Shown here one piece after another: positions 23,228-54,090 of a stretch of 64,000 bases of DNA. Every line of letters starts with the position of its first letter. Position 1 is the stretch's first letter. The DNA is taken from positions 1 through 64,000 of the forward strand of contig CANQQV010000001.1 in the NCBI GenBank assembly GCA_947626095.1. The letters are read 5' to 3'. Both the position numbers and the translations under genes were made by a program. Below the pieces are notes generated by a model. The model was not told where the DNA came from, made no database searches, and was given only the letters and a program-made list of their open reading frames with translations. The stretch comes from an uncultured Bacilli bacterium. Its GTDB lineage: Bacteria > Bacillota_I > Bacilli_A > RF39 > UBA660.

Positions 23228-23807
23228 TTGAAAAAAATTATTGTTATTACAACGAGTCTTATACTCATTATTTTCTTAGGATTACTTATGATAAATAATA
23301 AAGATTCTAAGAACAATCTTACTAAAATTAAATTAGCAGAAGTCACCCATAGTATTTTCTATGCACCATTATATGTAGCTATCGAAAATAACTATTTCAA
23401 AGACGAAGGACTAGATATAGATCTAATTTTAACTAGTGGAGCTGATAAAGTAAGTGCTGCCGTTTTATCTAATACTATTGATATTGGCTTTGCTGGTCCA
23501 GAATCAGCTATCTATGTCTATAAAAATGGTGAAAAAGATTACTTAGTAACCTTCGCTGGTTTAACAAAAAGAGATGGTCAATTTATTGTATCCAGAAAAC
23601 CAATTGAAAATTTCACTATTGAAGATTTATATGGTAAAGAAATACTACCTGGTCGCCAAGGTGGCATGCCCATTTTAAACTTCTTAAACGGAGTTAAAAA
23701 CGCCAAAGGTGATATTTCTAAGATAAAAGTTAACTCTAGTATCGACTTTGCTTCTCTATCTGGTTCATTCATCTCTGGTGTTGGCGACTTTGTTAATCTA
23801 TTTGAAC
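23228..23807 (+). CDS. NitT/TauT-family ABC substrate-binding protein (YtlA-like), 5' part, interrupted by element 1
   Basis: SD AGGAGG, TTG start, signal anchor, EVTHSIFYAPLYVA, GPES, LTKRDGQF; family-like sequence stops at DFVNLFE. Confidence 0.92.
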
Positions 23808-23833
23808 TTAGTGTGTAGATAATCACTCACCTA

Positions 23834-24511
23834 TTAAATAGACTTTTTAGAAAATATTTTGTATGAAATATGATAAGATAGAAAATAAAATATAATATTT
23901 AAAACTAAACAAATAATTGGTGAATATTTAAATAGTAATTTTAAATCAACTATATTATATAAATTAGAAAATAATAATAAAATTAAGCTACATATTAATC
24001 CAAATACAAAGATAAGTAAAGCTGGTATTATAGTTGATTGCATTCTTCCTTTTTCAACACCCCATTTATATATACAAGGAATATCTGTACACATTAAAAA
24101 GGAAGAACTAGTAAAAGCAATAAAACAAATTCTTAGCGCATTTCCTAATCCACTTACATGTCCTCTTACTATAATAGTTATAATAAAGCTGATAATGATA
24201 CCACTTATAATAGATATAGCTGATGTAAAAAAAGTAAATAAATATTTAGCTATAACAATATCTTTTCTAGTTATGGTTAAAGATAATAAATAATCATCAG
24301 ATTCAGCATTCTCATCATAAGAAAAGGTCGAAATACTATTCATCCCAAAAAAGATTAAAAAGATTATACTACCTGCAGTAAAGACATCAATTTCAAAAGA
24401 AGCTATAGCAATTAAAATAATAACCATGATAAGACTAAAATAAATATTACTTTTATAGTTTTTAAAAACATATAAATCTTTTAACATTAAACCTTTTATC
24501 GTGTTCATCAT
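23834..24511 (-). CDS. ABC-2 transporter permease
   Basis: IKGLMLKD, TRKDIVIAKY, six TM segments. Confidence 0.85.
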   Translation of the reverse strand: MMNTIKGLMLKDLYVFKNYKSNIYFSLIMVIILIAIASFEIDVFTAGSIIFLIFFGMNSISTFSYDENAESDDYLLSLTITRKDIVIAKYLFTFFTSAISIISGIIISFIITIIVRGHVSGLGNALRICFIAFTSSSFLMCTDIPCIYKWGVEKGRMQSTIIPALLIFVFGLICSLILLLFSNLYNIVDLKLLFKYSPIICLVLNIIFYFLSYHISYKIFSKKSI

Positions 24512-25393
24512 TTATTCTCCTTTAACTAATAAAAGCATAACTTCTTCCAAAGTAGGTTTTCTTAACTTTATTTTTGGATAATTTTTACTAAATGAATTCT
24601 TATTATCAGTTAAAACTAAATACTCATTTTTATATTTTAAATATTTAATATAATCTTTTGCTTTTATTTCATGAAAATCATTAGGAGATATTTCAATTAA
24701 ACCATATTCTTCGTCAAGAATACTTTTAGCAATATCTAAAATAATATTACCATCATCTATAAAAATTATTTCATCAGCTAAATGTTCTAAATCACTAGTT
24801 ATATGAGTTGTTATTAAAATAGAATTCTCTTTATTACTGACAAACTTGCCAAAAATATCAATTATTTCATAACGAAATATTGGATCTAACCCATTAGTTG
24901 GTTCATCAAGAATTAATAATTGTGGTTCATGAGAAATAGCACATATGACTTTTATTTTCATTTTCATACCACTAGAAAATTCTTTGAGTGGTTTATTACA
25001 AGGTATTTTAAATTCTTTAATATAATCATAATATATCTTTTCATTCCAATTATGATAAAACTCTTTCATTAACTTATTTATATCATTAACATTTAAGATA
25101 GGCGAAAAGAAACTATTATCTAAAACAACACCTATTTTTTCTTTATCTGCCTTTGTTAAAGTATTTTGCTCTTTACCAAATATTTTTATCACACCTTGAT
25201 CATAATTTATCAGATTTAAAATAGCTTTAATCGTCGTAGTTTTACCACTACCATTTTTACCAATAAAACCAACTATCTTACCAGCTGGTACTTTAATATT
25301 TACTTTGTTTAAACTAAAATCAAGATACTTTTTAGTTAAATTTACAACTTCTAATTTATTTTTCATATCAATCATCCAATAAAAGTATAACAT
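24512..25393 (-). CDS. ABC transporter ATP-binding protein (exporter type)
   Basis: GKNGSGKTT, FSSGMKMK, LILDEPTNGLD; start probably the later MKNKLE ATG. Confidence 0.92.
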   Translation of the reverse strand: MLYFYWMIDMKNKLEVVNLTKKYLDFSLNKVNIKVPAGKIVGFIGKNGSGKTTTIKAILNLINYDQGVIKIFGKEQNTLTKADKEKIGVVLDNSFFSPILNVNDINKLMKEFYHNWNEKIYYDYIKEFKIPCNKPLKEFSSGMKMKIKVICAISHEPQLLILDEPTNGLDPIFRYEIIDIFGKFVSNKENSILITTHITSDLEHLADEIIFIDDGNIILDIAKSILDEEYGLIEISPNDFHEIKAKDYIKYLKYKNEYLVLTDNKNSFSKNYPKIKLRKPTLEEVMLLLVKGE

Positions 25394-25544
25394 GATATCA
25401 GTAATAAAAAAACACTAGCTTAGTTAGTGTTTTATGCTGAATCTAAACAAAAAAAGAATACATTTTTGTATTCTTTAAGTTAATTCAATGCTTTTTTCTT
25501 CTAACATCTTAGCTAGCAAGTAAGAAATTGAAATTGGAAACAAT

Positions 25545-25730
25545 TCATACTATATCTGTATCTTTTATTTCATCATATAATAAGACAACTGTTGCACAAT
25601 TTTAACTAGTCATTTGTTCAGCTCATGTAAGGGGTGTAGAACATATGGCATTCCAGCTTTATTGACTTAATTTTTTATGTTTTTCATCCATTATTTTAAT
25701 TACCATTTTAGCCATATCTGTATATATCAT
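25545..25730 (-). pseudogene. decayed HD-domain small alarmone hydrolase ((p)ppGpp/(p)ppApp hydrolase-like)
   Basis: Across two frameshifts and stops reads MIYTDMAKMVIKIMDEKHK / VNKAGMPYVLHPLH / AEQMTS*NCATVVLLYDEIKDTDI; ATG overlaps the upstream stop (ATGA). Confidence 0.8.
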
Positions 25731-26119
25731 AAATTCATCCCCTTATGCTGGTCCACGGCAGATACTGTTGGATAGTTATCTTCGAACTCTATTTCATCGA
25801 CTCTTAAATTTCCATATTCGAATTCAGTTATGAAAAAAGGGAATTCTATCCATGCCTTTTTTGTTTCATCAAACTTATAGCTAACATAATTATCATAATC
25901 AACTTTAAATATTGTATATGGTGGATGGGGAAGTTTATAGTATTTACATGAATTTTTAGACTCACTATCAAAGAAATGATAACTTTTAATTTTTTCTATA
26001 TATCCTGGTGAATTTACTTTTTCTTCATATTCTCTAATTGCCTCTATCACATCTTCTTTAGTTACTTCTTTTCCACCTGCTAATAATTTTGTTCCTTCAA
26101 CTTTTGTGTTATCCTTCAT
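25727..26119 (-). CDS. putative immunity protein
   Basis: 130-aa ORF with SD AGGAGG directly downstream of the toxin; role inferred from position. Confidence 0.6.
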   Translation of the reverse strand: MKDNTKVEGTKLLAGGKEVTKEDVIEAIREYEEKVNSPGYIEKIKSYHFFDSESKNSCKYYKLPHPPYTIFKVDYDNYVSYKFDETKKAWIEFPFFITEFEYGNLRVDEIEFEDNYPTVSAVDQHKGMNL

Positions 26120-26136
26120 TTTAATCCTCCTATTTA

Positions 26137-29100
26137 TTATGGACTAGGTACCATTTGCGTATAAACATATACTTTTCCTCCAATGTACTCAGATCCTAAT
26201 ATAATTTTTTTATTTCCTTCGCCAGCATTTAATAACCACTCTACCTCTGAATGATGTGAACTTATATCACCTACATATGCCCCTTTGGTTCCTGGTGGAC
26301 ATGATGTTACTTCAATAATTGGCGAAAACCTTGTAAATCCTTGGCCCAATACTGGCGTTGAACTGGCAAAGCCATTATCTCCTATTTCATAAACACCGCC
26401 ACCTAAAGCGTTTATAGCATCAGATAATTTCTTGCCAGTTAATTGAACACCGTTTGCATCTTTTAGTGCATCACTTACTGTTCCAGCGGCAAGCCAGCTA
26501 ATATCATCAATTCCTCTGTACATTAGTGTTGTTTCATTAAGGTCTGGAGCAGATTCTGATAGATATTTGTATAAAGCGCTAATTTGATCTATATATTCTT
26601 GTTTTATGTGTGAAAAATCTCCAGTTCTTAGTGCATTATTCAGTGCTGTATAATCATTACCAGTAAAAAGTTTCATTCCATCTCTTGCAATAGGATCAGC
26701 TCCCGTCCAAGCATTATAGCTATTTTTAAACACGGTCTCTTTACATACTCTATTCGCATTTTCCCATGAACCACTACCTGGACAAAAATCTGGATGAGCA
26801 CTTATAACGTCCTGTGTCGCATCCCTTGCTTTAATTCCTAATTTTGAATAAAAATCGTTAATCCTATCAGTTATTGCTTTTATTCCTGAAGACGAAGTCA
26901 TACTAACTGCAGTATCAGTAAATGGGAGAGTTTTTAAGTAATATTGAGCCAATGTTCCTCTGGCTGTTACAAATTGGATTGAATTTTCACCATATTTAGA
27001 AGCAATATTTTTCAAAATTTCATCAGCTTTTTTGCCATATTGTCTTAAAGCGGCTTCACTATCGATTACGGCATCGGCTGGTAAACCTGTTTTTTTATAT
27101 TTTATATATCCTTGAGGATATGAATCTATTTGAGCTTCATATGCGTGAACTTCTGGAGCATTAATACCAGCAATCAATTTTTTTGGCTTTGGTGGTTGAG
27201 AGACTTGTTTAATGTAATTATCCACAGCATTATTTAAGTCAGTCTTACTATGATAGGCAAAAGTAACATTGTCTGTGTTATAAATTGATTGGTTTAGTAC
27301 CATAATTTTTTCTGATAAACCTTTTATTTGCGGATCTACATTTGGATTTCTATAAAGTTCATACCAAGAATGATTTCTAAACTCTTTTACGTCAAATGAA
27401 GCTTGAGTGTGGAATTGTACTTCAAGATCTATACCTTCCGGACTAGTAAATGTAACATTTAATCCACTATATGATTTATTACTTCCCCAAGCATTATTCA
27501 TATATCTTATTTGATAGCCATTTTGTTTTATTTTTGCTATTTTCGACAAAACTATATCTTCATAATTACCAGAATCACAAATTAAAGTATATCTTAAACT
27601 ATCATTTACTTGATCTTCAGCAAAAGTAAGGTCACAATGCAAATTATTTACTAACCTGTATAACTTGCTTTCAATACTTCCTTGTGATTTAAATTTTGCA
27701 TTAAGACCAATTAAGTGAGCAGAATCATCTTGTAAACTTTCCATTAAACTAGTTACAGCTGGCTCTATTTGAACTGCTTTAGCTCCAATCTCTTGCGCTT
27801 TTTGTTGAATTGCAGCACGAAGATTTGGATCTATTTCATCCGCTTGTTTTAAACTATTTATATATTCATCTAAAGTCATTCCCTTTTTATGAATATTTTC
27901 CAATAAGTCTACTTGCAACTGATGTTGACGTTTAAGATCCATATTTTTTTGAGCCGCTAATGTATCAGATGGATCTATGCTATTTAATTGTTTTGTATAA
28001 CTATCTTGTAAATCCGCAAGTTCTTTAGCCATAGCTGCACTTTTATCTAATTCTTTTGCAGCATATTCAAATTGTCCTAGAATCTCATCTGATGTATCAA
28101 CTGTTCCTGCTGCCACTTGTTTTGGAACGGCGTTTGCTGAATCATCTATGACATCTGCAATTTGTTTTGTAGCTATACCTGCTGTCTCACCAGATACCAT
28201 TATGGCCGAGGTATCTGCGACTCCTATTGAAGTTGTTGCTTGTTTTGCAGTAGCAGCTGTTGTACCTGAAACTACTGACCTCGCTGAAACATCACCTAAT
28301 GCTTTTATCTTATCAGCTATCAACTTACCATAATGTGCTACATTGTATTCATATGTTCCAATAGTTATATCTGAAAAGCCTTTTGTTCCTCCGAAGTGGA
28401 ACTTTACTTCTTTATCAAGATCTTCAATTAATTGCATTGTTGTGGCATCAACAGAATCACTAGCTGATTTAAATGATAACGTACCATCCGTAGCAAATGG
28501 ATCTGCTACTTGTTGCGTCGCTGTTAAAGCTTTTCTTAATTCTGGTACTTCTGTTAAGAAGCTTATTGCTCCTGCACTTAAGGCCTGAGTTCCTACTGCT
28601 CCCCATCCACCATTATATTCAAATAATGCTTGATATTTTTCAGTAAATGATAATTCATCCCATGTCTTATCATTAACTTTTACGCCATTTTCATCATAAT
28701 TTACTAAATACATTATTTGATCTAAATTATTTTCTGTCGGATTATATAACATTTGCATTAATGGATTTATTAATGCTCCTGATCCGCCATCTACTGTATC
28801 TAATGCAACATGGGATCCGGTTGTTATGAGTTGTCCTTTAAATCCAGCTAAACCTGGAAATTTTAGTGCATTAATTTCTGCTCCTAGGAACATTTCTGCT
28901 CCTTCCCATAATCCCATTGCTGTTCCATATGTTAATCCATCTGATAATGTCGCCCCATCCGCCCATGCATTTTGCGTATTCTTACCAAAACCTGCTGTTG
29001 CTGCAATAACTCCTGATGTTATTGCTTGTTGTGTTATATTTACAGTTGCTACATTACCAACATTTAATGTTGCTAATACCCCTGCACTTGTTCCAGCAGT

Positions 29101-30168
29101 TGTTGCAGCACCAGTTCCAGCTGCTCCAGCTCCCGCGGCTGCTCCACCTATTCCACATGTAGCTAAAGTTAGTAATATTATTCCACCTATATATCCTACT
29201 CCATCAGCTATTTTATATGCTGCGCCTGTCGATTTAAATGGTTCATAAGAATTCTCATCTAACCATTGTCCAACAACATTGTTTTGATGAAATGAATCAA
29301 AAGCATCTGTTACATATTTAGTACTTACAAAATCCATTGTTCCTTGCCATGCTTTCTTTGTTACAGATTGCCAATCTTCATTTCCACTTATTTTTCCACC
29401 TAGCCATTGAATTCCATCGACTATTCCATATATCGGTGTTGCTGCTGCTTGACCTACTATTGATGCGGTATCCACCAAAGCTTCACCGAATTCTCCAACT
29501 CCTTGTACTAATGCTACTGCTGTATTAGCGATAGATGCTCCAGTCTTTTTTAAAGTTTCTATTGGATGCGTTACTGCGTTCCATGCTGACTTACCAACTT
29601 CTTGGGCTTTTCCTGTAATCCAGTTAAAAGCCGACTTTGCTTTGGTAGTTGCCTTTGCAGCTGTATTGCTTATCGCATCTCCTACATCATTTACTACTTT
29701 ACCAATTGTATTTTTAGCTGATTCAAAAAGGTTTGCAACAGCTGACGTCGCTTTGGTTACTACACTTGCCGTAGAATCTTTTATTTCGGAGTCATCCACT
29801 ATTGAATCGCTTACCTTATCTCCAATTAACGCTCCTATTCCTGCTCCTATAGGTCCTAATACCGATCCTAAAAGAGCTCCTTCTAATGTCCCTATTGCTT
29901 TTAAACCTGCGCTTGCTCGATTTTCTACTTTTCTAAAATCTTCAGCCGCTGACGCTATTTGGTCAGATGTTTCATGAATACTAAAATTAACATTATCAAT
30001 ATTAACAGTAATATCATGTAAATCTTTACATACATATAATGATATTAAAGGCTCGACATTATTATTAACTATATTTATATCATTTATTATTTGATTCATT
30101 ATAGGTTCTGTATTTGTTAAAGTGTCATACGCTTTATCATATGTTTCGGGATCCATTTTTATCGCCAT
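26137..30168 (-). CDS. polymorphic toxin (putative type VII substrate) with RelA/SpoT-like synthetase and C-terminal ADP-ribosyltransferase domains
   Basis: Helical N-terminus, Gly/Ala hydrophobic region, KSQGSIESK / DSLRY / YSGLN / EVQFHT, then YTALNNALR / YRG / FASST / EVE. Confidence 0.85.
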   Translation of the reverse strand: MAIKMDPETYDKAYDTLTNTEPIMNQIINDINIVNNNVEPLISLYVCKDLHDITVNIDNVNFSIHETSDQIASAAEDFRKVENRASAGLKAIGTLEGALLGSVLGPIGAGIGALIGDKVSDSIVDDSEIKDSTASVVTKATSAVANLFESAKNTIGKVVNDVGDAISNTAAKATTKAKSAFNWITGKAQEVGKSAWNAVTHPIETLKKTGASIANTAVALVQGVGEFGEALVDTASIVGQAAATPIYGIVDGIQWLGGKISGNEDWQSVTKKAWQGTMDFVSTKYVTDAFDSFHQNNVVGQWLDENSYEPFKSTGAAYKIADGVGYIGGIILLTLATCGIGGAAAGAGAAGTGAATTAGTSAGVLATLNVGNVATVNITQQAITSGVIAATAGFGKNTQNAWADGATLSDGLTYGTAMGLWEGAEMFLGAEINALKFPGLAGFKGQLITTGSHVALDTVDGGSGALINPLMQMLYNPTENNLDQIMYLVNYDENGVKVNDKTWDELSFTEKYQALFEYNGGWGAVGTQALSAGAISFLTEVPELRKALTATQQVADPFATDGTLSFKSASDSVDATTMQLIEDLDKEVKFHFGGTKGFSDITIGTYEYNVAHYGKLIADKIKALGDVSARSVVSGTTAATAKQATTSIGVADTSAIMVSGETAGIATKQIADVIDDSANAVPKQVAAGTVDTSDEILGQFEYAAKELDKSAAMAKELADLQDSYTKQLNSIDPSDTLAAQKNMDLKRQHQLQVDLLENIHKKGMTLDEYINSLKQADEIDPNLRAAIQQKAQEIGAKAVQIEPAVTSLMESLQDDSAHLIGLNAKFKSQGSIESKLYRLVNNLHCDLTFAEDQVNDSLRYTLICDSGNYEDIVLSKIAKIKQNGYQIRYMNNAWGSNKSYSGLNVTFTSPEGIDLEVQFHTQASFDVKEFRNHSWYELYRNPNVDPQIKGLSEKIMVLNQSIYNTDNVTFAYHSKTDLNNAVDNYIKQVSQPPKPKKLIAGINAPEVHAYEAQIDSYPQGYIKYKKTGLPADAVIDSEAALRQYGKKADEILKNIASKYGENSIQFVTARGTLAQYYLKTLPFTDTAVSMTSSSGIKAITDRINDFYSKLGIKARDATQDVISAHPDFCPGSGSWENANRVCKETVFKNSYNAWTGADPIARDGMKLFTGNDYTALNNALRTGDFSHIKQEYIDQISALYKYLSESAPDLNETTLMYRGIDDISWLAAGTVSDALKDANGVQLTGKKLSDAINALGGGVYEIGDNGFASSTPVLGQGFTRFSPIIEVTSCPPGTKGAYVGDISSHHSEVEWLLNAGEGNKKIILGSEYIGGKVYVYTQMVPSP

Positions 30169-30205
30169 TTAAAATCACTCACTTCTTAGCTTATTTAATT
30201 ATGAT

Positions 30206-30493
30206 TTAATTATTTTGACACTCTTGACGTCTCTTTAATTCTTTTTCCTGTTGATTTCTTATTTCCTGAGCTTTAGTTCTTATTGTATTAGATATTGCAT
30301 ATAATCGGTTTCGATATGTTTGTAATTTGTTTATATTATCAGAAATTTTTTTACTTATTTTTTTAGAACTGTTAGAACTATTTTTACTGATTTCTGATAA
30401 AGCTGTAATATAGTCATTTATTACTTCAGTTATTTCTTTAGCTGTTGTTTCTAATTTTGCTGCTAATTCATTTTCTCTACTAACGTTTATCAT
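30206..30493 (-). CDS. small helical protein, putative toxin secretion partner
   Basis: 95 aa, coiled-coil character, between WXG100 genes and toxin. Confidence 0.6.
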   Translation of the reverse strand: MINVSRENELAAKLETTAKEITEVINDYITALSEISKNSSNSSKKISKKISDNINKLQTYRNRLYAISNTIRTKAQEIRNQQEKELKRRQECQNN

Positions 30494-30567
30494 ACTTTCA
30501 CCTTACTTTATATTTTATACTATATTAATTATATAAAAAAAAAGCCATTTATTAAAGGCTTTTTTTA

Positions 30568-30861
30568 TTATACTTCTTCTACTTTTGATTTAGCTGTTGT
30601 TTCAAGTTTTTCATATGCAGGAGCTACAGTATCAGTAAGATATTTTGCACAATCTGTTATAGCTTGTTCAAATGCAGGTCCTCTTGATTTTATGTTATTA
30701 AATGCATCAACTATTTGGTTTGATGCATCAGAATGATAATTATCAGAAACTGAATTAATCAAATCGCCAAATTCTTCAAGTAATTCACCTACTTTTGATG
30801 CTGAGTTTTGTAAACTTGATGCTGCTAAATTACATTCTCCACTTGTAAATTTAAATGCCAT
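30568..30861 (-). CDS. WXG100-like protein (degenerate motif)
   Basis: 97 aa helical hairpin pattern, NYHSDAS at the WxG position, tandem with a WXG100 gene. Confidence 0.7.
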   Translation of the reverse strand: MAFKFTSGECNLAASSLQNSASKVGELLEEFGDLINSVSDNYHSDASNQIVDAFNNIKSRGPAFEQAITDCAKYLTDTVAPAYEKLETTAKSKVEEV

Positions 30862-30876
30862 TTCTTATTCCTCCTA

Positions 30877-31149
30877 CTATAATTCGCTTTCTAGATTTTG
30901 ATAATCTGTTCCAACTGCATTGATTAGTTCACCAAAGTCTCCCATTATTTTGGCAAATTTTTCAAAATCAGCTTTAAAACTTTCAACATTTTGTGTATAT
31001 CTAGTTGCTGACTCTCCGGTCCAACTATTTTTTAAATCATCTATTATTCCATATATGGTACTTATTTCTGTTTGAAATTCTGCTGCCTTTGCACTTATTT
31101 GAGAACCATCGGAAATTAATTTAGCTGGATCTTGGATTTCAATATTCAT
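30877..31149 (-). CDS. WXG100-family type VII secretion target
   Basis: 90 aa, central LKNSWTGESA, C-terminal YQNLE. Confidence 0.88.
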   Translation of the reverse strand: MNIEIQDPAKLISDGSQISAKAAEFQTEISTIYGIIDDLKNSWTGESATRYTQNVESFKADFEKFAKIMGDFGELINAVGTDYQNLESEL

Positions 31150-31309
31150 ATATCATCTTCCTTTTCTATCATTACTACCATTATAACATTAATTATTTTA
31201 TTAGTATAGTTACATGACACTTTTATTTACAACAATAACAAAATATCTTCGTAATACAAAAAGTTGTAAGATAATCTTACAACTTTTATTAATTATTTAT
31301 TTAGTAATA

Positions 31310-32299
31310 TCATAAGTTACAACCAACATCTTTATGATTTAAATCGCCAAATAATGCATAAGTTAAACATTTCAATCCACCCTTACAAAATTCAGCATAT
31401 TCACATTCCTTACAATCGTCTGGTATATCATCATCACGTAAACTTTTTAAAACAGAATTATTCATATATAACTGATACATATTTTCTTTTAATAAATTAC
31501 CTACTACAATTGGCATTCTTCTACAAGGAACTAAATCACCATTTTCTATAACAGTTAACAATGAAACCCCAGCTGTACAATGATACGGCAAATCATTCGT
31601 CATCTGAAATTGCAACGCTCTATACATAGCTATATTCGTTTGACTTTTTTTCAATTTTAAATTTTGTCTTTCTTTCTCCATTATTGCTAAAAATTCTCTT
31701 GTTTGTTCTAAACCCATAACAAAATCTTTATCATATTCTGTTCCTAAAGGTATAAATCTGTCAGACCAAACATTATCTACTTTATATTTTTCGGCATATT
31801 TTATTACTTTAGGAAATTCTTTATAATTAAGTCTTGTAACTGTAAAAGAAACAGAGACAAAAATATTATATTTTTTTAAACATTTTATTGCTTCTGAAAC
31901 CTTTTTATAGACACCTTTCCCACGAACATAATCATTAGTTTTTCTTCCACCTTCTAAACTAACTTGAACATATTCCGGATTATACTCACTTATTCGTTTT
32001 GCTATTTTATCATCAATCAACGTCCCATTAGTAAGAATTGAAAAACTATATAAGTCACTATCTTTTTTAAATTCATCTAAAATTTTAAAAAAGAAAGGAC
32101 AGCATAAAGGTTCTCCACCAGTTAGATTTATATGTCCTTTCATATTAAGTTTCTTCAAAAGTTCTCTATATTGATTAAGAATTATCAATAATTCTTCATA
32201 CTTTAATTGTATAGGTTTATGGTCTTTTTGGTAACAATGTTTACATTTTAAATTACATACTTCACTTAAATGCCACTGCAAAACAAATTTTTTTACCAA
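31310..32299 (-). CDS. radical SAM/SPASM domain protein
   Basis: CNLKCKHC, TGGEP, TNG, SPASM C..GDLVPC..CKEC..CKGG..C; start reassigned to TTG at 32299, 8 nt after GGAGGT. Confidence 0.92.
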   Translation of the reverse strand: MVKKFVLQWHLSEVCNLKCKHCYQKDHKPIQLKYEELLIILNQYRELLKKLNMKGHINLTGGEPLCCPFFFKILDEFKKDSDLYSFSILTNGTLIDDKIAKRISEYNPEYVQVSLEGGRKTNDYVRGKGVYKKVSEAIKCLKKYNIFVSVSFTVTRLNYKEFPKVIKYAEKYKVDNVWSDRFIPLGTEYDKDFVMGLEQTREFLAIMEKERQNLKLKKSQTNIAMYRALQFQMTNDLPYHCTAGVSLLTVIENGDLVPCRRMPIVVGNLLKENMYQLYMNNSVLKSLRDDDIPDDCKECEYAEFCKGGLKCLTYALFGDLNHKDVGCNL

Positions 32300-43987: not shown

Positions 43988-44054
43988 AATTCATCACTTA
44001 CTTAAAGCTATGAATAATAACCATTATTTAGTACTTTCTTACTCTTACATTAAG

Positions 44055-44876: not shown

Positions 44877-44902
44877 GAATACTACAAACACACTTTCACA
44901 TA

Positions 44903-44931
44903 AAAAAACTGATAAAATTATTTATCAGTTT
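44903..44931. terminator. bidirectional terminator just inside the left end of element 2
   Basis: AAAACTGATAAA-ATTA-TTTATCAGTTTT hairpin. Confidence 0.7.
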
Positions 44932-45922: not shown

Positions 45923-48900
45923 CTCCTATCAGTTATTTGCATTCCTGGTAAATTATCATAAGGAACTAAATTATTAACAGTTTTCGATGTACTAGTTAAT
46001 CTTTGACCATCATTTGTCTCTGCATCATTGACACGATATAAATATGCGCGAATAGCTTCTGCATCAGTTAGCATTTTTTCATATTCTTCTTTACTCATAA
46101 TGTATAACCAAGTACCATCAGCAACTTCATATACCGAGCGATCACTATTTAATGTCGCAAATATTAGCTCTTCACCAGCATAAACAATTGTTTCGTTATT
46201 AGCTTTACCAATTAGTATTGCATTCAATGCAGGATTACCACGATATGATCCTTGAATTACAACTGAACCAGCTTTTATTACGCCCTTCTTACCTATTACC
46301 TTGCCATTTTTATCTACTTCGTCTTTTTCACATTCTTTTTCATCTGTTAAGTAACAATAATCACTTTCTAACTTACCTACAGTGGTAATATCAACATTAT
46401 CTCCAGGAGGAGCAATGACATCAATCTCTGCTCCAGATAAACTAGTCTTACTATCAGATTCTATCTTGATATAATTAATTTTATTATAAGTCCATAATTG
46501 ATTCTTGCTATCAGTACCTTCTTTCATAAAGTAAATAGTATCTTCAAGAGTTTCATCACTACCTACTGAAGTGTTAAATGTACCAACAGCTGCTTGTTTC
46601 CAACTATTATTTTCACCATCTTCACTTACATAAATCTTATATTTAGTAATTGTATTAGGATCTATTTGTCCATCAGTAACTAAAGCACGATACTTAATAC
46701 CACTTACAGACATTGGATTATTTAAATTAATAATTACATAAGCATTACCATTATCAGTAGTCATACTAGGTATTTGATTAGCATCATACTTTAATGTTGG
46801 AATCTTCTTAGTACCAATAAAACCAGTATTAATATTGCCATCAATTAAGTTATTAACGCTTAATTTAGAATAATCAAAGTCTTTATCTTCATAATCAACT
46901 TCTTCATTTTCTGCTTGTACATTTGATGAAATAGTAAATGCATCTTTCTTAACACTACCATCATGAGCTATCTTAACTTCTGGTAGAACTACTTCATTAG
47001 TTTTATTTAAATAATAATCATAAGCAACAACTGAATATGTATAAGCACGATTATTTTCTGCTCCTACATTATCAACAAAACTACTTACACCATCTTCATT
47101 TTCTACAAAACCAATAGAAACACCATTACGTAATATTTCAAATCCTAAAATTTTATCGCTATCTTTATTTAAATTAAAATTAATAGTTACACGTTTATCT
47201 TTACTACTAGCTTCAACAACACTAGCTTCTAGAATTTCAGCTCCTTCGCTAATACTTCCAACTTTAGCTAACTTTTGACGCCATGCATTATCATTTAAAT
47301 AATAAATAGCTCTAGTTTCTTTTGAAATACCTTCAATTGAATCAATTTCTTTTTTCAATTTATCATTTGTAACTTTTAATCCCCAAGCTTCAAAGAAATC
47401 TGTTAAATCCTTTTTCGTTGCCATTGAAGCAAACAAGATTGTTAATTCATCTCTTGAATAATTATTTTCATTTTTATAATTTCTTGCAATTCTATTTACC
47501 TTAGCATAGATAGAATTTTCATCTTTAAATGTTTTACCTTCATCATAAGCTAAATGTAATTGCCAATACATACCTAATTGAACAAATACATTTTGTGCTC
47601 GACCAGTCGTATGTGATGTAACTTTTTCATAAATCTTATCATAACCTTGATTTTCTAAACGAGATTCATCATGATCATTACTTGTTTGCGCAAGTAAAGC
47701 ATAAATATTATTTGTAACTTCAGCAAATACTGTATCTTTTAAATTGATTTGGTGTCCAACTTCATGGCTAATTCCCCAACCAAAGTATCCAGTTTTACTA
47801 TCAGTATTTCTACTAGCTTGAACAAGTCCAGCAATTGAACCATATTCAATACCAACATGGTAACCACCAGCATACATAAATGCTCCATAGAACATTTGCA
47901 TGTAGCGAATATTAATTCTAGCTTTAGGCATTCTATCAGTCGATTTTGTATCGTCTGTTTCAATAAATCCTTTTTGACGATAGAAGAAATCCATCATTTC
48001 GTCAAATGCTTCCATAGATTCATATAATCTATTAACTTTTTGTTCTAATGTAGTATTATCATTTTTTAATGCCTCTTCAACAGCAACACTAGATACAGAA
48101 AATAATCCATATTTTGTAACAATTTCTGTTGATCCTAAAACACTAGAAGATTTATCAAATTTACCATCTATTAATTTATTTTCATCAGCATAAACTTTAT
48201 ATTCTGTTCTTAATTTACTATTATATGCTTCTAATTCATTAATATATTCTCTAATTGCATTTTTCTTTTCATCTGTGCTAGTTAGATTAGTTGTATCAAC
48301 CATTGGTATTTTAGTACCACCACTAACACGTACTCTAATCGGCGTATTAGCATTTGGAGTTGATGTATAACGTATATAAACGCTACCACCACGTTCAGCA
48401 TCAGATGCAGAACCAATTTGTTGTATCTCAATTACATTTAATCCTCTTTTTAGTTTCCCAGCTGATTTTTGCCATGCAGCAGCTTCAGCATGATATTGTG
48501 TATATATTAATTCAGCTGTAACATAACCATTTCTATCAACTGGTGCATCACTAGCAACATAGACATTTAGTTTTTCACCAGGTCTAGCTACTATTCCTAA
48601 TGGTTGATAATCACTAATTGTCATTGCAAATCTAACATGATTATTATAATAATTTGATATATTTGGATTTAAAGTAATTATATCATCTATTTTTTCATCA
48701 TTTAAAATCTTTTGTGCATATTCTAAATCTGCTAAAATACTTTCTTTATAAGGATTATCTTCACCATGATCTTGTTCTTCTGCTCTTGCTTTCAACTCGT
48801 TTATCTTATTTTGATCTACATTTTCTTTTAATGTTAATCTAAAGTCATCAGCAAATAAAGCAGCCACCTCATCAACTAATGAATCATACTGATAAAATTT

Positions 48901-51180
48901 AACTTCATCTATTTTTATATCACGTTGATTATTAGCAACAGTTAAACCAAAAGCAACCGCTTTAGCTTCAATAGGATCTTCAAGTTTTAATAAATAATAA
49001 GTACGACCTTGTTTATCAGTTTTAGCTGTTAAAGTACCTGGTACTTCTTGACGATCTTTATTATCATAAATATCATGTGCATCAGCCCAATAATGTACTT
49101 TAATATCATTACTATTTGGTCCACCACTTTTTAATTTAGCACCATAATTATCTGGAATCGTTAAAACAAATTCATCCATTTTATACTTATTATCTAATAC
49201 AAATACTGGTGTTCCAGTATTATATCCATTACTAGCTGAAATCGTCCAATCACTATGATACCAATAAGTATTATAGTCATCATCAACCATTGAATACTTA
49301 TCACCATTAACCATTGTACCTGCTGTATAATGAACTTCTTCAACACGAACTGTCTTACCATCTTTAACTTCATCATTAATTAATTTATATCTAGGTACTA
49401 TAGCAGCACCTCCAACTAAAGTTCTAGCTTCTACCATTGTATAACTATCACTTTCACCGATTGGATTAACACCTATTACATAAGCTTCATAAACTGTATC
49501 AGCATTTAATCCAGTAACAACATAACTATTATTTGTAAGGTTATCCACTAAATTAAACACAGATGTACCTTTTTCACGCCAATATAATTTATAAGATGTT
49601 GTATCATCCATTTTTTTCCAAGAATAAGTAATTTTACCATAACCAGGAGTTGCACTAACATTATCTACTTTTGGTGCTTTACCAGAAGCTTTAGGTGTAC
49701 CTTCATGTTCATCACTCCAGCCACTACGCCATTCTTGATTAGTTGATCTAACTTTTATTTTATAAGTTACATAGTTCTTTAAATCTTCAATCGTAAATTC
49801 AGAGAATGTTGTTTGGAATACTACACCATTTTTAGTACCACCATTAATTTCAATTTCATAACCTGTTACATTAGGAACATCTTGAAATTTAATTGTTAAT
49901 TGTTCACTTTTTGAATCATCAATACGAATATTTTGTGGTGTATAGAATCCCTCTGGTTCTTTTGTTTCTACCTTAACATTATTTAAGAATTCTACTTTAG
50001 CTATATCAGCTAAAGTATTTGAAGAAGTCTCAGTAATAACTATTGTTACTTTTTTAACAGCTACTTGACTGCCTAAATCAACTTTAATAGTTCCTTCAGC
50101 TACTTCATCAGTAAACTTATGAACTCCTTCTTCAGCCTTAGGTGTTGTATTATCAACCACGTATTCATGAGTCTCACCTTCACTGTCTTCTACATATAAT
50201 TTCATTTTTTGTGGTACATTATCTTGTCCAACAGCTATTCTTATTTCACTCATTTCAATAGTTTCTGATTGTTTACTACCTAAATCTAAAGCTAACTTAA
50301 CTGGATTATCTTCTGAAATAGAACCTTCACTATCACTTTTTAGTTGTACTACCTCATTTGAATCAATAAATATATTACTTATGTCACTACCTTCTACAAT
50401 ACTAGTACCTTGTGGTAATTCTACAGCTACATTATCATTACTCATAATTGCACTAGTATCCTCAATTAGTAATTCACCTTTAGAAGAATTCATAACTGCT
50501 GTAATATAATTTAAATCAGCTATATCTACAACACCATCTAGATTTAAATCCTTACTAGTATCGTTATTTTCAATAGCTTCAATCATTATTTTTTCATCTG
50601 CTTCATTTACTTTATTATCGTGATTAACATCACCTATTTCAAATAAACCAGCCGTATTAGATAAACTAACTCTTTTTGAAAAATCTTTTAATGTTACTGG
50701 AACGCTATAAGTAACAAAGTTAGTTCCACTAAATTCTAATGTATATTTACCAGTCTTTAATGAATATAAATTAATACTATAATAAACAATATTATCTTCA
50801 TTTTCACCAGATATGACATTTCCATTAAAATCACGTTTAGTAATTAAAACACGAATATTTTGTTCTTCACCTATATTAACAGTTGTGTTATAAATACCAC
50901 TTTGATCTTTTTCAACGTCATCTAATTTTATTGACCCTTTATTATTATTTTCGTCAATAACACTTAAAGTAATATTTGATTTATTTTTATTTCTAATTGG
51001 TAAAGCTAATTGAAGTTCAACTTCAATATTTCCTTTAGCTTCAATGTTATCTAACTGTACACTATGGGCGACTTCATTATTTAACCCATCCATCGCCATT
51101 ACGATTAATGGCGAAAAACTATTAAATAGCATTGCAACTACCAATAAAATTGATAATATTTTGTTCCATATTTTAATCAT
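45919..51180 (-). CDS. M60-like metallopeptidase with dockerin, FN3 and F5/8-like modules
   Basis: WGISHEVGH..EVTNN, QPLGIVARPGE, GGSVY; GDVNHDNKVNEAD and DLNLDGVVDIAD Ca-loops; two FN3 repeats. Confidence 0.88.
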   Translation of the reverse strand: MIKIWNKILSILLVVAMLFNSFSPLIVMAMDGLNNEVAHSVQLDNIEAKGNIEVELQLALPIRNKNKSNITLSVIDENNNKGSIKLDDVEKDQSGIYNTTVNIGEEQNIRVLITKRDFNGNVISGENEDNIVYYSINLYSLKTGKYTLEFSGTNFVTYSVPVTLKDFSKRVSLSNTAGLFEIGDVNHDNKVNEADEKIMIEAIENNDTSKDLNLDGVVDIADLNYITAVMNSSKGELLIEDTSAIMSNDNVAVELPQGTSIVEGSDISNIFIDSNEVVQLKSDSEGSISEDNPVKLALDLGSKQSETIEMSEIRIAVGQDNVPQKMKLYVEDSEGETHEYVVDNTTPKAEEGVHKFTDEVAEGTIKVDLGSQVAVKKVTIVITETSSNTLADIAKVEFLNNVKVETKEPEGFYTPQNIRIDDSKSEQLTIKFQDVPNVTGYEIEINGGTKNGVVFQTTFSEFTIEDLKNYVTYKIKVRSTNQEWRSGWSDEHEGTPKASGKAPKVDNVSATPGYGKITYSWKKMDDTTSYKLYWREKGTSVFNLVDNLTNNSYVVTGLNADTVYEAYVIGVNPIGESDSYTMVEARTLVGGAAIVPRYKLINDEVKDGKTVRVEEVHYTAGTMVNGDKYSMVDDDYNTYWYHSDWTISASNGYNTGTPVFVLDNKYKMDEFVLTIPDNYGAKLKSGGPNSNDIKVHYWADAHDIYDNKDRQEVPGTLTAKTDKQGRTYYLLKLEDPIEAKAVAFGLTVANNQRDIKIDEVKFYQYDSLVDEVAALFADDFRLTLKENVDQNKINELKARAEEQDHGEDNPYKESILADLEYAQKILNDEKIDDIITLNPNISNYYNNHVRFAMTISDYQPLGIVARPGEKLNVYVASDAPVDRNGYVTAELIYTQYHAEAAAWQKSAGKLKRGLNVIEIQQIGSASDAERGGSVYIRYTSTPNANTPIRVRVSGGTKIPMVDTTNLTSTDEKKNAIREYINELEAYNSKLRTEYKVYADENKLIDGKFDKSSSVLGSTEIVTKYGLFSVSSVAVEEALKNDNTTLEQKVNRLYESMEAFDEMMDFFYRQKGFIETDDTKSTDRMPKARINIRYMQMFYGAFMYAGGYHVGIEYGSIAGLVQASRNTDSKTGYFGWGISHEVGHQINLKDTVFAEVTNNIYALLAQTSNDHDESRLENQGYDKIYEKVTSHTTGRAQNVFVQLGMYWQLHLAYDEGKTFKDENSIYAKVNRIARNYKNENNYSRDELTILFASMATKKDLTDFFEAWGLKVTNDKLKKEIDSIEGISKETRAIYYLNDNAWRQKLAKVGSISEGAEILEASVVEASSKDKRVTINFNLNKDSDKILGFEILRNGVSIGFVENEDGVSSFVDNVGAENNRAYTYSVVAYDYYLNKTNEVVLPEVKIAHDGSVKKDAFTISSNVQAENEEVDYEDKDFDYSKLSVNNLIDGNINTGFIGTKKIPTLKYDANQIPSMTTDNGNAYVIINLNNPMSVSGIKYRALVTDGQIDPNTITKYKIYVSEDGENNSWKQAAVGTFNTSVGSDETLEDTIYFMKEGTDSKNQLWTYNKINYIKIESDSKTSLSGAEIDVIAPPGDNVDITTVGKLESDYCYLTDEKECEKDEVDKNGKVIGKKGVIKAGSVVIQGSYRGNPALNAILIGKANNETIVYAGEELIFATLNSDRSVYEVADGTWLYIMSKEEYEKMLTDAEAIRAYLYRVNDAETNDGQRLTSTSKTVNNLVPYDNLPGMQITDRR

Positions 51181-51358
51181 AATTTCACCTCGCTAATATT
51201 ATATATTATGACTAAATTTCTGACAATAGAATTTTGCAATTTTTTCCCTAAAATACCCTAAAAAGTTCTATATATTAAATTCTTTAATACAATAATATTA
51301 AGTTTTAAAATTTTTATAACTGTTTATAACGATTATATAAATAAAAGGTGAATAAAAA

Positions 51359-51460
51359 ATGTCATATAAAATTATTAATTTATATCAAAATATAAACTCT
51401 GAAATTATTAATTATAAACTATCACTTATTCTTAAATTAATGGAGTCAAATAATGATTAA
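51359..51460 (+). CDS. 33-aa ORF coupled to recombinase 2
   Basis: SD AAAGGTGA, MSYKIINLYQNINSEIINYKLSLILKLMESNND, stop overlaps recombinase start (ATGATTAA); not in the ORF track. Confidence 0.45.
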   Translation: MSYKIINLYQNINSEIINYKLSLILKLMESNND

Positions 51461-52958
51461 AGTTGGTATATATTTAAGATTATCTAAAGAAGATAAAGAT
51501 AAAATAAATATTGAAGACAATAGTGAATCTATTAAAAACCAACGTCATCTTCTTTTAGATTACATCTCTAAACATCAAGATTACATCTTAGTAAATGAAT
51601 ATTGTGATGAAGATTTATCTGGTGCCGGTACATATCGTCCTGAATTTACCAGATTAATTAAAGATTGTGAAAACCACAAACTAGATCTTGTCCTTTGTAA
51701 AAGTCAATCAAGATTCTCTCGTGATATGGAAGTAATTGAAAAATACTTACATAACAAGTTTAATGAATGGCACATTAGATTTATTAGTTTAGCTGATAAT
51801 GCTGATACTAATAATCTCGGTAATAAAAAAGCTCGTCAGATAAATGGTTTAGTTAATGAATGGTATTTAGAAGATATTTCAAATAATATCCGTAGTGCTT
51901 TTAATATTAAAATGAAACAAGGTGAATATATCTCACCTTTTGCTCCTTATGGTTATGAAATATCTTCTAAAGATAATAATAAACTTATTATTGATCCTAT
52001 TGCTTCTTACATAGTAAAAGATATTTATACTTTCTACTTAAAAGGTTATAGCTATACAAAAATAGCTAATTACTTAAATAATAAAAATATCCCTAGTCCC
52101 TCATACTATAAATATCTAAAAGGTAGTAAATTAAATATCATCAGTAATAAACCTCGTAAAGATATTCTCTGGTCTCCTAATGCTATAAAACATATTTTAA
52201 CTAATGAAATATATATTGGTAACTTAGTTCAAGGTAAAAGAACAACTATTAGTTATAAAAATCATAAAATAATTACTAAAGAACAAAGTAAATGGATTAA
52301 GTCATTAAATACCCATGAACCAATAATAAATAAAGATACTTTTACTAAAGTCCAAGAATTAATTAAGCAAAAAGCAAGACCTCTAAAAAACAACAAAATT
52401 ATTCACTCTTTTTCTCATAAAGTCTATTGCCTTCATTGTCACCATTTAATGCGTAAGAAAAATTCTCATACTCACGAATATCTTTTCTGTCCTAATCCTA
52501 ATTGTTCTAACACTTCCATTAGATATGATACTTTAGAACAAATAATCTTATCTAAAATAAATAACTTAGTTAAAAAATACTATAACAAAGATTTACTTAA
52601 TAAATATCTCAATAACCAAGATCAATTAAATAATTTAATAAAAGAACAAAAAGATTTAGAAACTAAAATAATTAATCACCAAAATATCTTATTTAGTATT
52701 TACGAAGATAGATTAAATAAGCTTCTTACTACTACTGAGTTTAAAGACCTAACAACTAACTACCAAAAAAGAAAAACTATCTACCAAAAACAACTAAACC
52801 AAATTACAAAGCAAATCTCTTTATATAATCCCCCTTCTCTTAACTTTAAATCATTTACTAAACTAAATTATCTTATAACTAATGAATTTATCTCTAAGAT
52901 CTTCATTAGTTCAATAAAAAACCAAGTAAGAACAATTAATATTATCTGGAACTTTTAG
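51453..52958 (+). CDS. large serine recombinase of element 2
   Basis: YLRLSKED, SESIKNQ, DEDLSG, RPEF, SRFSRD, APYGY, THEPII, CLHC..CPNPNC. Confidence 0.95.
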   Translation: MIKVGIYLRLSKEDKDKINIEDNSESIKNQRHLLLDYISKHQDYILVNEYCDEDLSGAGTYRPEFTRLIKDCENHKLDLVLCKSQSRFSRDMEVIEKYLHNKFNEWHIRFISLADNADTNNLGNKKARQINGLVNEWYLEDISNNIRSAFNIKMKQGEYISPFAPYGYEISSKDNNKLIIDPIASYIVKDIYTFYLKGYSYTKIANYLNNKNIPSPSYYKYLKGSKLNIISNKPRKDILWSPNAIKHILTNEIYIGNLVQGKRTTISYKNHKIITKEQSKWIKSLNTHEPIINKDTFTKVQELIKQKARPLKNNKIIHSFSHKVYCLHCHHLMRKKNSHTHEYLFCPNPNCSNTSIRYDTLEQIILSKINNLVKKYYNKDLLNKYLNNQDQLNNLIKEQKDLETKIINHQNILFSIYEDRLNKLLTTTEFKDLTTNYQKRKTIYQKQLNQITKQISLYNPPSLNFKSFTKLNYLITNEFISKIFISSIKNQVRTINIIWNF

Positions 52959-52973
52959 TGTCTTTACTACTTT

Positions 52974-53315
52974 CAAAGAGTTGCTTTAATCAGAACACTA
53001 GCTATTAAACCTGATATTCTTCTTTTAGACGAACCATTTTCCGCTTTAGATTTTCCAACTAGTCTCGAAGTAAGTAATGATGTCTATAAAATAATTAAAA
53101 ATGAAAAGAAAACTGCTATTATGGTTACTCATGATATTGCATCAGCCATTAGTATGGCTGATAAGATAATTGTCTTAAGTAAAAGTCCAGCGATAATTAA
53201 AAATATCTATGATATAAACTTAGATAATAAAGATATTCCTACCACTAATCGTCAGGATAATAAATTTAATTACTATTATGATTTAATATGGAAAGATCTT
53301 GATAACATTGTCTAA
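52974..53315 (+). CDS. NitT/TauT-family ABC ATPase, 3' part
   Basis: QRVALIRTLAIKPDILLLDEPFSALD..MVTHDI (Walker B, D-loop, H-loop) in frame with the 5' part. Confidence 0.93.
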   Translation, partial: QRVALIRTLAIKPDILLLDEPFSALDFPTSLEVSNDVYKIIKNEKKTAIMVTHDIASAISMADKIIVLSKSPAIIKNIYDINLDNKDIPTTNRQDNKFNYYYDLIWKDLDNIV

Positions 53316-54090
53316 AGAACAAAAAGCTTTTTTAAAAAAGTATCATCAAAATAAAAGAATTATTCTTTTAATCCAAATTATCATTATTCTTCTTTTCCTT
53401 ATTATATGGGAACTACTAAGTAAATACGGTATTATTAATTCTTTTATTTTTAGTCGCCCATCTAAAGTAATTAAAACTATCTATGATTTATATCTTAAAC
53501 ATCAATTATTTAATCATATCGGTATTACTATTTATGAAACATTAATAGCTTTTATTATTAGTTTACTAATCAGTATTATTCTTTCTATACTATTATATCT
53601 ATATCATAACTTTTACAAAGTAATGGACCCATTCTTAACATGTTTTAATTCCTTACCAAAAGTAGCACTAGGTCCCATGATTATTATTATAGTTGGTGCT
53701 AATATTAAAAGTATTATTGTTACAGCTATTTTAATAAATGTTATGGTTAGTACCATTGTTATTACTAATGGCTTTTATAATACTGATAAAACTAAGTTAA
53801 AACTTATGTTATCTCTAAAAGCTAATAAGTATCAAATTCTTAAATACTTAGTAATACCTAGTTCTTATAAAATTATTATCTCTTCCTTCAAATTAGGGAT
53901 AAGTATGAGTTTAATTGGTGTTGTAACTGGGGAATTCTTAGTTAGTCGTGCTGGCTTAGGTTACTTAATTATATATGGTACTCAAGTTTTTAACTTAGAT
54001 CTTGTAATTAGTGGTATTTTACTTCTCATTATCATCTCTTATATTCTATATAAATTAATTGAATTACTCGAAAAAAAATTATTAAGTTAG
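53299..54090 (+). CDS. NitT/TauT-family ABC permease (YtlD-like)
   Basis: FIFSRPS, NSLPKVALGP, GEFLVSRAGLGYLI. Confidence 0.92.
   Translation: MITLSKEQKAFLKKYHQNKRIILLIQIIIILLFLIIWELLSKYGIINSFIFSRPSKVIKTIYDLYLKHQLFNHIGITIYETLIAFIISLLISIILSILLYLYHNFYKVMDPFLTCFNSLPKVALGPMIIIIVGANIKSIIVTAILINVMVSTIVITNGFYNTDKTKLKLMLSLKANKYQILKYLVIPSSYKIIISSFKLGISMSLIGVVTGEFLVSRAGLGYLIIYGTQVFNLDLVISGILLLIIISYILYKLIELLEKKLLS

Follow-up and report, generated by a model that had tools for sequence, protein, structure and literature searches.

The 64,000-nucleotide stretch of DNA analyzed here (the window), from an uncultured member of the Bacilli, carries at 23228-54090 an operon for a NitT/TauT-type ATP-binding cassette (ABC) importer, comprising genes for a substrate-binding protein (SBP), an ATPase, and a permease, all on the plus strand, in which the first two genes are each split by an island bearing its own large serine recombinase (LSR). 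We consider it most likely, with moderate rather than high confidence, that this operon is rebuilt by excision of the two islands, which would make them gene-intervening elements of the skin, SPbeta, and gin kind. That the genes must be rebuilt, we infer, follows because their pieces stay under selection while interrupted. Rebuilding would proceed by precise recombination between the attachment (att) sites at the two ends of each island (attL x attR), each LSR acting with a presumed directionality factor, the small protein whose gene lies immediately upstream of its own; a working transporter would be made only when both islands are out.

As for the setting, analogy with known systems points to sporulation, with excision taking place in the mother cell as it differentiates terminally, a tentative placement to which we assign somewhat less than half of the total probability. 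The chromosome of the spore would then keep the islands, and each element would otherwise be inherited with the chromosome. Such a model explains the vertical co-divergence of elements and hosts, the undiminished selection on the gene halves, and the small size and low gene content of many elements. It would also account for the accumulation of four unrelated recombinase lineages in one operon, because a gene of a cell without descendants is a cost-free harbor.

Organization of the interrupted operon

The source genome is a metagenome bin of 1.6 Mb in 34 contigs, with a G+C content of 27% and a completeness of 91%. Its importer operon has the NitT/TauT make-up, with an NMT1/SsuA-like SBP, an ABC ATPase, and a TauC/SsuC-like permease encoded together (Table 1). 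The SBP gene is broken at 23806/44059 into 193 + 134 amino acids (aa; 327 when joined) and the ATPase gene at 44875/52986 into 140 + 109 aa (249 when joined), the inserts measuring 20,251-20,252 and 8,110 bp, respectively. NMT1 is recognized by Pfam in both SBP halves, ABC_tran in the N-terminal half of the ATPase, and BPD_transp_1 in the permease; the C-terminal half of the ATPase, scanned alone, matches no Pfam family. The translations of all four half-genes and of the permease are free of internal stops. In intact relatives, the two parts of each gene join up without the gain or loss of a single residue, and the predicted joins are in frame.

Breakpoints, insert lengths, junction residues, and the openness of the half-genes and permease had been put forward in an earlier note on this DNA, and all of them proved correct. 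The same holds for its description of an intact recombinase at the right end of each insert and for its treatment of the two inserts as independent: LSR1 and LSR2 each contain three Pfam domains, and the inserts are independent LSR elements, with 23% identity between the recombinases and no relation between their att sites. Both islands are non-phage integrative elements, each inserted by its own LSR at one exact position within a codon. An intact second copy of the operon, named in the note as a finding that would speak against excision, was looked for as well, and no second SBP or permease copy was found in the 1.6-Mb genome at its 91% completeness.

Table 1. Coordinates of the importer operon, its islands, and their recombinase genes in the window.
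Feature	Positions	Strand	Basis or remark
Promoter-like motif of the operon: AC, 17 nt, AATATAATA	23175..23202	+	about 10 nt before the ribosome-binding site
SBP gene, 5' half, aa 1-193, NMT1 family	23228..23806	+	translation, Pfam; intact homologues continue at the end codon
Island 1, 20.25 kb, between attL1 and attR1	23807..44058		comparison of occupied and empty sites
Island 1 cargo (ABC-2 exporter pair, WXG100/ADP-ribosyltransferase cassette, radical SAM/SPASM protein, and others)	23834..42248		Pfam
LSR1, large serine recombinase, 540 aa	42237..43859	-	Pfam Resolvase, Recombinase, and Zn_ribbon_recom, above cut-offs
Small open reading frame 1 (smORF1), 42 codons, candidate recombination directionality factor	43862..43987	-	stop overlaps LSR1 start (TAATG)
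SBP gene, 3' half, aa 194-327	44059..44463	+	translation, Pfam
ATPase gene, 5' half, aa 1-140, Walker A through signature LSGGMKQRVA	44456..44875	+	translation, Pfam
Island 2, 8,110 bp	44876..52985		comparison of occupied and empty sites
Island 2 cargo: 1753-aa M60-like peptidase (FN3 and F5/8 type C domains); 334-aa anchored low-complexity protein	44918..51180	-	Pfam
smORF2, 33 codons	51359..51457	+	overlaps LSR2 start by 8 nt
LSR2, large serine recombinase, 501 aa	51453..52958	+	Pfam Resolvase, Recombinase, and Zn_ribbon_recom, above cut-offs
ATPase gene, 3' half, aa 141-249, Walker B, D-loop, H-loop	52986..53315	+	translation
Permease gene, intact in the window, 263 aa	53299..54090	+	translation, Pfam

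Selection on the gene halves and descent of the elements

Intactness of the halves had earlier been taken as a sign of selection on the rejoined products, and comparison between species bears this out. Among tblastn fragments of the five gene parts, one of 114 contained a stop, and this lies in an element-derived att arm upstream of the junction; no stop occurs within the gene pieces of the 14 species that carry inserts. The ratio of nonsynonymous to synonymous divergence (dN/dS) of the split genes is 0.10-0.13 at dS 0.51-0.78 in pairs formed by three species that share both inserts (G000, G005, and G010), compared with 0.05-0.16 for pairs of intact species. Judged from these sequences, the gene halves are under purifying selection, and an operon that had been dead since the common ancestor could, we infer, not have kept 2.5 kb open at such divergence.

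LSR1 has diverged along with the operon. For the same species pairs, the dS of LSR1 is 0.62-0.65 and that of the host genes 0.61-0.71, and the dN/dS of LSR1 is about 0.29. All six internal splits of the LSR1 tree of nine carriers are also found in the operon tree, and an rpoB tree, from which G010, G042, G006, and G011 are missing for lack of an rpoB match, gives the same host clades. Vertical inheritance of LSR1, co-diverging with its host in the nearest species, is thereby shown. Island 2 likewise has three genes in syntenic order, with 61-72% aa identity, in two sister species sharing both inserts.

Occupancy of the insertion sites in the genus and beyond

The genus set comprised 27 species genomes, and occupancy was determined from fetched regions and by tblastn. 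The operon is present in 21 of them, interrupted in 14, intact in seven, and bearing two or three inserts in six, so that the comparison of relatives called for in the earlier note extends to genomes with zero, one, two, and three inserts, always at the same exact sites. Site 1 (SBP aa 193/194) is occupied in nine species (G000, G005, G010, G014, G042, G004, G013, G003, and G007), site 2 (ATPase aa 140/141) in eight (G000, G005, G010, G042, G007, G018, G019, and G006), site 3 (permease, about aa 208) in three (G019, G022, and G012), and site 4 (SBP, about aa 146) in G042. Sites 3 and 4 each have an LSR lineage of their own, which brings the total to four sites and four lineages. Site 1 holds islands of 2.95 to 20.25 kb, and in the smallest there is little besides the LSR and there are no transfer genes. 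Some gene pieces in the genus set lie on separate contigs. Apparent breaks in the G009 ATPase and the G012 permease (aa 113-117) were rejected as inserts; they are overlapping contig ends.

The operon is flanked by the same neighbor genes in most species of the genus and, because it is, can be regarded from its context as a chromosomal core locus. In operon-less sister genomes the downstream neighbors are retained, and an 802-aa gene upstream of the operon is also absent from the 8 kb examined in three species; since this gene is missing too, the loss is not a clean deletion of the operon alone. In the window, the corresponding acidic protein is encoded 5' of the operon (20691-23099, minus strand); it matches no Pfam family and is kept beside the operon in sister species.

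Four genomes of other genera in the same family also have the SBP gene in two pieces: near aa 193-203 in G163 and G170, with the pieces 3-4 kb apart, and near aa 146-153 in G247 and G268, with the pieces about 8 kb apart. Because these breaks lie near the positions of sites 1 and 4, both sites are, on this sequence comparison, used beyond the genus.

Recombinases, attachment sites, and small upstream proteins

Comparison of occupied with empty sites across species gives, as the inferred attP1, the palindrome CATTAAGT-GA-ACTTAATG with a central GA, and intact relatives supply the inferred attB1, TTATTT-GA-ACCTAATG. TGAAC is common to both ends of insert 1, and the att architecture of site 1 is identical in all nine carriers of the genus. 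Insert 2 has the 12-bp sequence CAAAGAGTTGCT at both ends (44864-44875 and 52974-52985); the arms of attP2 are inverted, GTGTCTTTA..TTCA / TGAA..TAAAGACAC, the crossover falls within AGTTG, and attB2 was again read from intact relatives. LSR1 lies at the right end of island 1, and its reading frame is intact in all nine site-1 carriers; LSR2 lies at the right end of island 2, ending 27 bp before attR2, and is intact in each of the five assembled site-2 elements.

Directly upstream of LSR1, a small open reading frame of about 42-55 codons is found in all 11 elements compared, including two on metagenome contigs. Residues N14, I23, and Y25 of this family are invariant in the 11 elements, and in several of them, that of the window included, the stop of the small frame overlaps the LSR start; smORF1 itself matches no Pfam family. 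The five LSR2 genes are likewise each preceded by a related small frame with the motif EIINYKL..II..ME, of which the copy in G019 is divergent. A complex model of LSR1 with the smORF1 peptide scored 0.63, a value reached by 58 of 80 solved complexes and by two of 110 mismatched pairs, and the best of three controls scored 0.00. The runs agree in at least 86% of contacts, the predicted local distance difference test (pLDDT) value of the partner is at least 79, and the peptide is predicted to touch LSR1 at residues 379-395 and 464-507, just past the zinc ribbon (315-372 according to Pfam). The modeling thus supports a predicted binding of smORF1 to its own recombinase.

A third LSR of the G000 genome (locus L137, contig C28, 783-2366) has 527 aa, is 31% identical to LSR2, and adjoins a gene for a collagen-like protein with Gly-X-Y repeats.

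Link to sporulation

The genome that contains the window carries Spo0A (Spo0A_C), SpoIVA, and SpoVAC/SpoVAEB, and on the strength of these genes alone its host qualifies as a putative endospore former. Within the genus, all six operon-less genomes (completeness 64-96%) are without SpoIVA and SpoVAC, and all 21 operon holders have at least one of the two. The association extends to the class, surveyed by an even draw of 250 scored genomes with SBP matches accepted at an expectation value (E) of at most 1e-20: SpoIVA is present in 55 of 55 SBP-bearing genomes, the SBP in none of 171 SpoIVA-less genomes, and SpoIVA without the SBP in 24. SBP and SpoIVA vary together inside five families (22 vs 24 of 30 in f1, 2 vs 3 of 6 in f4, 1 vs 1 of 23 in f8, 7 vs 8 of 15 in f10, and 1 vs 1 of 4 in f25), relatives in these counts not being independent of one another.

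The promoter-like motif before the operon (Table 1) contains GAATATA(A/C)TA, invariant in all 16 species of an anchored alignment, behind a variable spacer; of the two bases at the -35 position, A is kept in no fewer than 80% of the rows and C in 60-80%. Sigma-K elements described for C. difficile consist of a -35 AC and a -10 CATATAAT (PMC3789822). By eye, no sigma-70 -35 element precedes the operon, and the promoter looks sigma-K-like. A motif that lies upstream of both spoIVA and smORF1 (GTWCTAAW, 13-15 nt, CATAnnnT) was considered and rejected as evidence because it was derived from the sole two hits before open reading frames and its five genome hits are close to the 3.4 obtained in shuffled sequence. 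A sigma-70 scan gave no minus-strand site between attR1 and smORF1 and a weak plus-strand site (9/12) before smORF2, with site counts below the shuffle means.

YtlA is an NMT1-type protein, and the window operon resembles YtlACD in its make-up, its sigma-K-like promoter, and its sporulation-restricted distribution. In B. subtilis, ytlA, ytlC, and ytlD are listed as sigma-K core sporulation genes (PMC3416734), and YtlC2D2A is described as a type I ABC importer of unknown function with one SBP, one ATPase, and one permease (PMC11466899). In C. difficile, ytlC (CD1927) and two other ABC parts are sigma-K-dependent (PMC3789822). Taken together, membership of the window operon in the sporulation gene set of its lineage appears to be the best explanation of these sequence patterns.

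The sigma-K-dependent ABC parts of C. difficile 630 (CD1891, CD1904, and CD1927) are scattered, and one is annotated as a "fragment" (PMC3789822); by analogy, a ytl-type operon might be split likewise in that strain. CD1891 and CD1904 are not mentioned in the available part of a paper on C. difficile mobile elements (PMC3158075).

More specific names for the importer did not emerge. Every NCBIfam match of the importer proteins fell below the equivalog cut-off, and a large protein search returned at most generic names, and no specific transporter name, among the 120 matches listed. Of solved relatives, a thiamine-precursor binding protein and one unnamed ABC binding protein are nearest. In an Rfam scan, the sole match was a tRNA at 75-145, with no riboswitch upstream of the operon.

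Horizontal movement, empty sites, and alternative explanations

Several observations weigh against rebuilding of the operon by developmental excision. Public data (five DNA runs from two gut-metagenome studies, available as assembled contigs, with no RNA run among those listed, four of the five compared with 34100-54090) yielded no rejoined or circle junction: in the contigs of the four runs, neither a joint at 44875/52986 nor a loose end at 44058/9 is listed. This result says nothing on excision, because contigs drop rare forms; the joints present in them have sides of just 20-33 bases and lie in AT-rich places off the att sites. The first base of the -10 element of the operon promoter is A instead of C, and the motif also contains TATAAT, for which reasons sigma-A is possible. 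No sporulation promoter has been established before either LSR, and the likeness to ytlACD is one of make-up, promoter, and distribution, with orthology putative. Trees and cargo provide further points of this kind. The LSR2 tree has one of two splits in common with the host tree; a host-like clade is not rejected (approximately unbiased test, p-AU 0.216). In the wider LSR1 tree, where all 27 site-1 LSRs form one clade against the outgroups, the LSR1 of the window clade groups with those of out-of-genus loci L148-L158 and not with those of the sister species G042 and G014. The L148-L158 LSRs are 87-98% identical (L157 76%), whereas the flanking host SBP halves are 63-75% identical. Most of the island 1 cargo differs among sister species, and its ABC-2 pair (23834-25393; L048 15203-16762) is 95-96% identical between G000 and G010, compared with about 88% for the host operon proteins, which suggests from sequence a recent exchange of this cargo module. 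Finally, the source genome is a metagenome bin with 7.9% contamination.

The last point would favor an artefact of assembly or binning in which the islands were mis-joined into the operon. This we regard as highly improbable: 14 species genomes, each assembled separately, and several metagenome contigs have base for base the same junctions, a 2,875-base contig from a public run bridges attR2 with no differences, and the att arms have the palindromic form expected of LSR sites.

A more substantial alternative, which we nevertheless consider unlikely, is that the islands are selfish and turn over, knocking out a dispensable operon with no regulated excision for the benefit of the host. Carriers would persist through useful cargo, such as the type VII toxin cassette and the mucin-type peptidase, and the apparent selection would stem from an empty-site subpopulation into which the islands keep re-integrating. 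Horizontal spread keeps this explanation alive: because LSR identity is far above that of the host SBP halves, the L148-L158 elements, of which the five measured are 4-8 kb, must have spread horizontally, and it would seem recently, to the same codon, near-identical LSR1 elements thus occupying divergent hosts. (The L148-L158 sequences come from metagenome-assembled genomes of several animal hosts.) The deep LSR1 tree that is not host-like, the position of the G010 LSR2 nearer to that of G018, the variable cargo with one pair more similar than the host genes, and the existence of occupied and empty forms in 99.65-100% identical backgrounds (see below) would fit selfish turnover as well. So would the location of site 2 within the ABC signature motif, an obvious conserved target, and the fact that 24 of 79 SpoIVA-bearing genomes do without the operon. 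It fits poorly, however, with an LSR1 dS equal to that of the host and six of six splits in common, with an island 2 that is syntenic and has diverged in step with the host, and with the gene pieces of 14 carriers being free of stops. Elements of down to about 3 kb with little beyond the LSR and no transfer genes make steady re-seeding between cells hard to explain, and mere dispensability is insufficient to account for four unrelated LSR lineages on one 2.5-kb operon.

Site occupancy was also classified in 51 metagenome loci. Site 1 is intact in 43 of them, occupied in three, and undecided in five; site 2 is occupied in three (L091, L103, and L104, the junctions being read) and site 3 in L089. 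L089 and L090 are 100% identical over the 5,756 bp up to site 3, one with the element and the other with an intact permease, and L103 and L105 are 99.65% identical over the 3,425 bp up to site 2. Read from sequence, such pairs show recent precise integration or excision, either one, in near-identical backgrounds.

These pairs would also be expected of a reversible vegetative switch unrelated to sporulation, akin to active lysogeny or phase variation, in which the islands excise and re-integrate in growing cells and turn the importer on or off in part of the population, for instance as protection from a phage or a toxic substrate. If the LSR and the putative directionality factor are co-translated, the reaction could conceivably run in either direction, and prophages in comK and hlb provide precedents (PMC7397523, PMC6597384). 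We hold a switch of this kind to be rather improbable, since the operon is confined to SpoIVA-bearing genomes, its promoter is sigma-K-like, and long vertical retention of the islands better fits excision in a cell without descendants than in the germ line.

Excision of the sporulation type, to which the earlier note had likened the arrangement, thus draws support from the sporulation genes of the host, the restriction of the operon to SpoIVA-bearing genomes, and the sigma-K-like promoter; the horizontal movement of some LSR1 relatives goes beyond that comparison. The note had also read the two inserts as an AND gate written in DNA. Both excisions would indeed be needed for a working transporter, but the gate is structural and not demonstrated logic, because the model needs no different regulation of the two locks.

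Comparison with known gene-intervening elements

To our knowledge, elements of the gene-intervening kind are on record for a small number of sporulation genes, nearly all from cultured Bacillus and Clostridium. Already known are the intervening elements skin, SPbeta, vfbin, vrin, gin, and yin, together with multi-element editing in heterocysts.

The gin element splits gerE in Bacillus cereus ATCC 10987 and encodes the recombinase GirC and GirX, a protein of 42 aa with no motif that is needed for excision (PMC5595907). Like the window islands, it is a non-phage element in a coding sequence of a spore former and has an LSR with a tiny partner; smORF1 also has 42 codons and is a predicted binder. 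The likeness of GirX and smORF1 lies in size and lack of a motif, as taken from the description of GirX. In contrast to gin, whose target is a regulator, the window islands interrupt an ABC importer operon, their small reading frames abut or overlap the LSR start, and several islands may occupy one operon; excision, moreover, is here a putative event.

The skin element in sigK of B. subtilis and C. difficile and SPbeta in spsM are LSR elements whose excision, helped by a small directionality factor, rebuilds the reading frame (PMC5025042, PMC4191935, PMC5499854). Such elements are inherited vertically and frequently degenerate. The directionality factor of C. difficile skin has 72 aa and is controlled by sigma-E/SpoIIID (PMC5025042). 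The window islands share with them the position of an LSR element within a gene, which is a mother-cell gene for skin and SPbeta and is proposed to be one here. They differ in that skin and SPbeta derive from prophages, occur one per gene, and express their directionality factor from a sigma-E or sigma-K promoter that has been proven. A Pfam scan of 15 cargo proteins of the window, 13 from island 1 and two from island 2, found no phage family, whether structural, packaging, or lysis, and no conjugation family among the 13.

Rebuilding by several excisions is known from heterocysts, with elements in nifD, fdxN (XisF), and hupL and a nifBHDK region in 13 parts in Calothrix NIES-4101 (PMC4874684, PMC11249958). 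There, too, several independent elements with their own recombinases interrupt one pathway, and all leave in a terminal cell (PMC4874684, PMC11249958). LSR1 and LSR2 match the NCBIfam XisF model below its cut-off. The heterocyst systems belong to another phylum, cell type, and pathway and also use tyrosine recombinases and inversions. Active lysogeny, as in the Listeria comK prophage and the hlb-converting phages of Staphylococcus aureus, resembles the window in that an element in a coding sequence leaves and restores the gene without loss of the lineage (PMC7397523, PMC6597384, PMC12607152), but it involves functional prophages in non-sporulating settings, whereas the window elements are small islands in a sporulation-linked operon.

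The remark of the earlier note that it knew of no such description for this operon holds for the ABC importer as a target, for which a limited literature search, without supplements, found no report; rebuilding of an operon by multiple excisions, by contrast, is known from heterocyst nif genes (PMC11249958, PMC4874684). New as well are the four exact sites with four LSR lineages across the genus and beyond, with up to three inserts per genome, and an adjoining micro-ORF of about 33-47 codons for each LSR. A continuing need of the host for the split genes is indicated by the evolutionary evidence, and this in an uncultured gut lineage with a small genome. If excision is developmental, the transporter joins the set of DNA-edited sporulation functions and provides an instance from nature of one operon under several independent recombinase locks, along with new sets of LSRs, att sites, and candidate directionality factors with naturally defined sites. 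It would also open the part played by ytl-type importers in spore formation to testing.

A broader possibility, in our view still short of probable, is that the operon serves the whole family as a landing pad on which at least four LSR lineages have settled, each tamed with a micro-ORF factor and all removed in the mother cell. To the same degree it is conceivable that this would amount to multi-lock developmental DNA editing in gut Bacilli, comparable to the editing of nif genes in heterocysts. Were this true, the importer would be a late mother-cell function, and clusters of recombinase interruptions could serve, in uncultured spore formers, as a guide to genes used only in the mother cell. 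In line with this are possible split spoIVA genes in the same class.

These were noticed in four genomes. In G079, SpoIVA looks split into residues 1-99 and 97-236 on the same strand, 91 kb apart (C1 673438-673737 and 765074-765493), and in G149, G170, and G254, a contig ends some 60 bases from each of the two pieces, which cover residues 1-124 and 120-237. The pieces may reflect spoIVA-intervening elements.

Further observations on island cargo

Only four to five of the island 1 cargo genes are common to the islands of sister species. Besides the genes listed in Table 1, the cargo includes a DUF2207 protein, an HTH_3 protein, an NlpC/P60 surface protein, and proteins of unknown type. A cassette in the style of type VII secretion (26137-31149, minus strand) encodes a 1343-aa protein with a C-terminal ADP-ribosyltransferase domain and two WXG100 proteins; the 130-aa open reading frame just downstream of the 1343-aa protein could encode an immunity protein. 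The DUF2207 membrane protein (31310-34395 region, minus strand) has a tail rich in Ser, Cys, and Gly (SSSS..CGGGCSSCGGGCSSCGGGGSW), and its gene overlaps the start of the radical-SAM/SPASM gene, an arrangement that might mark a peptide-modification pair.

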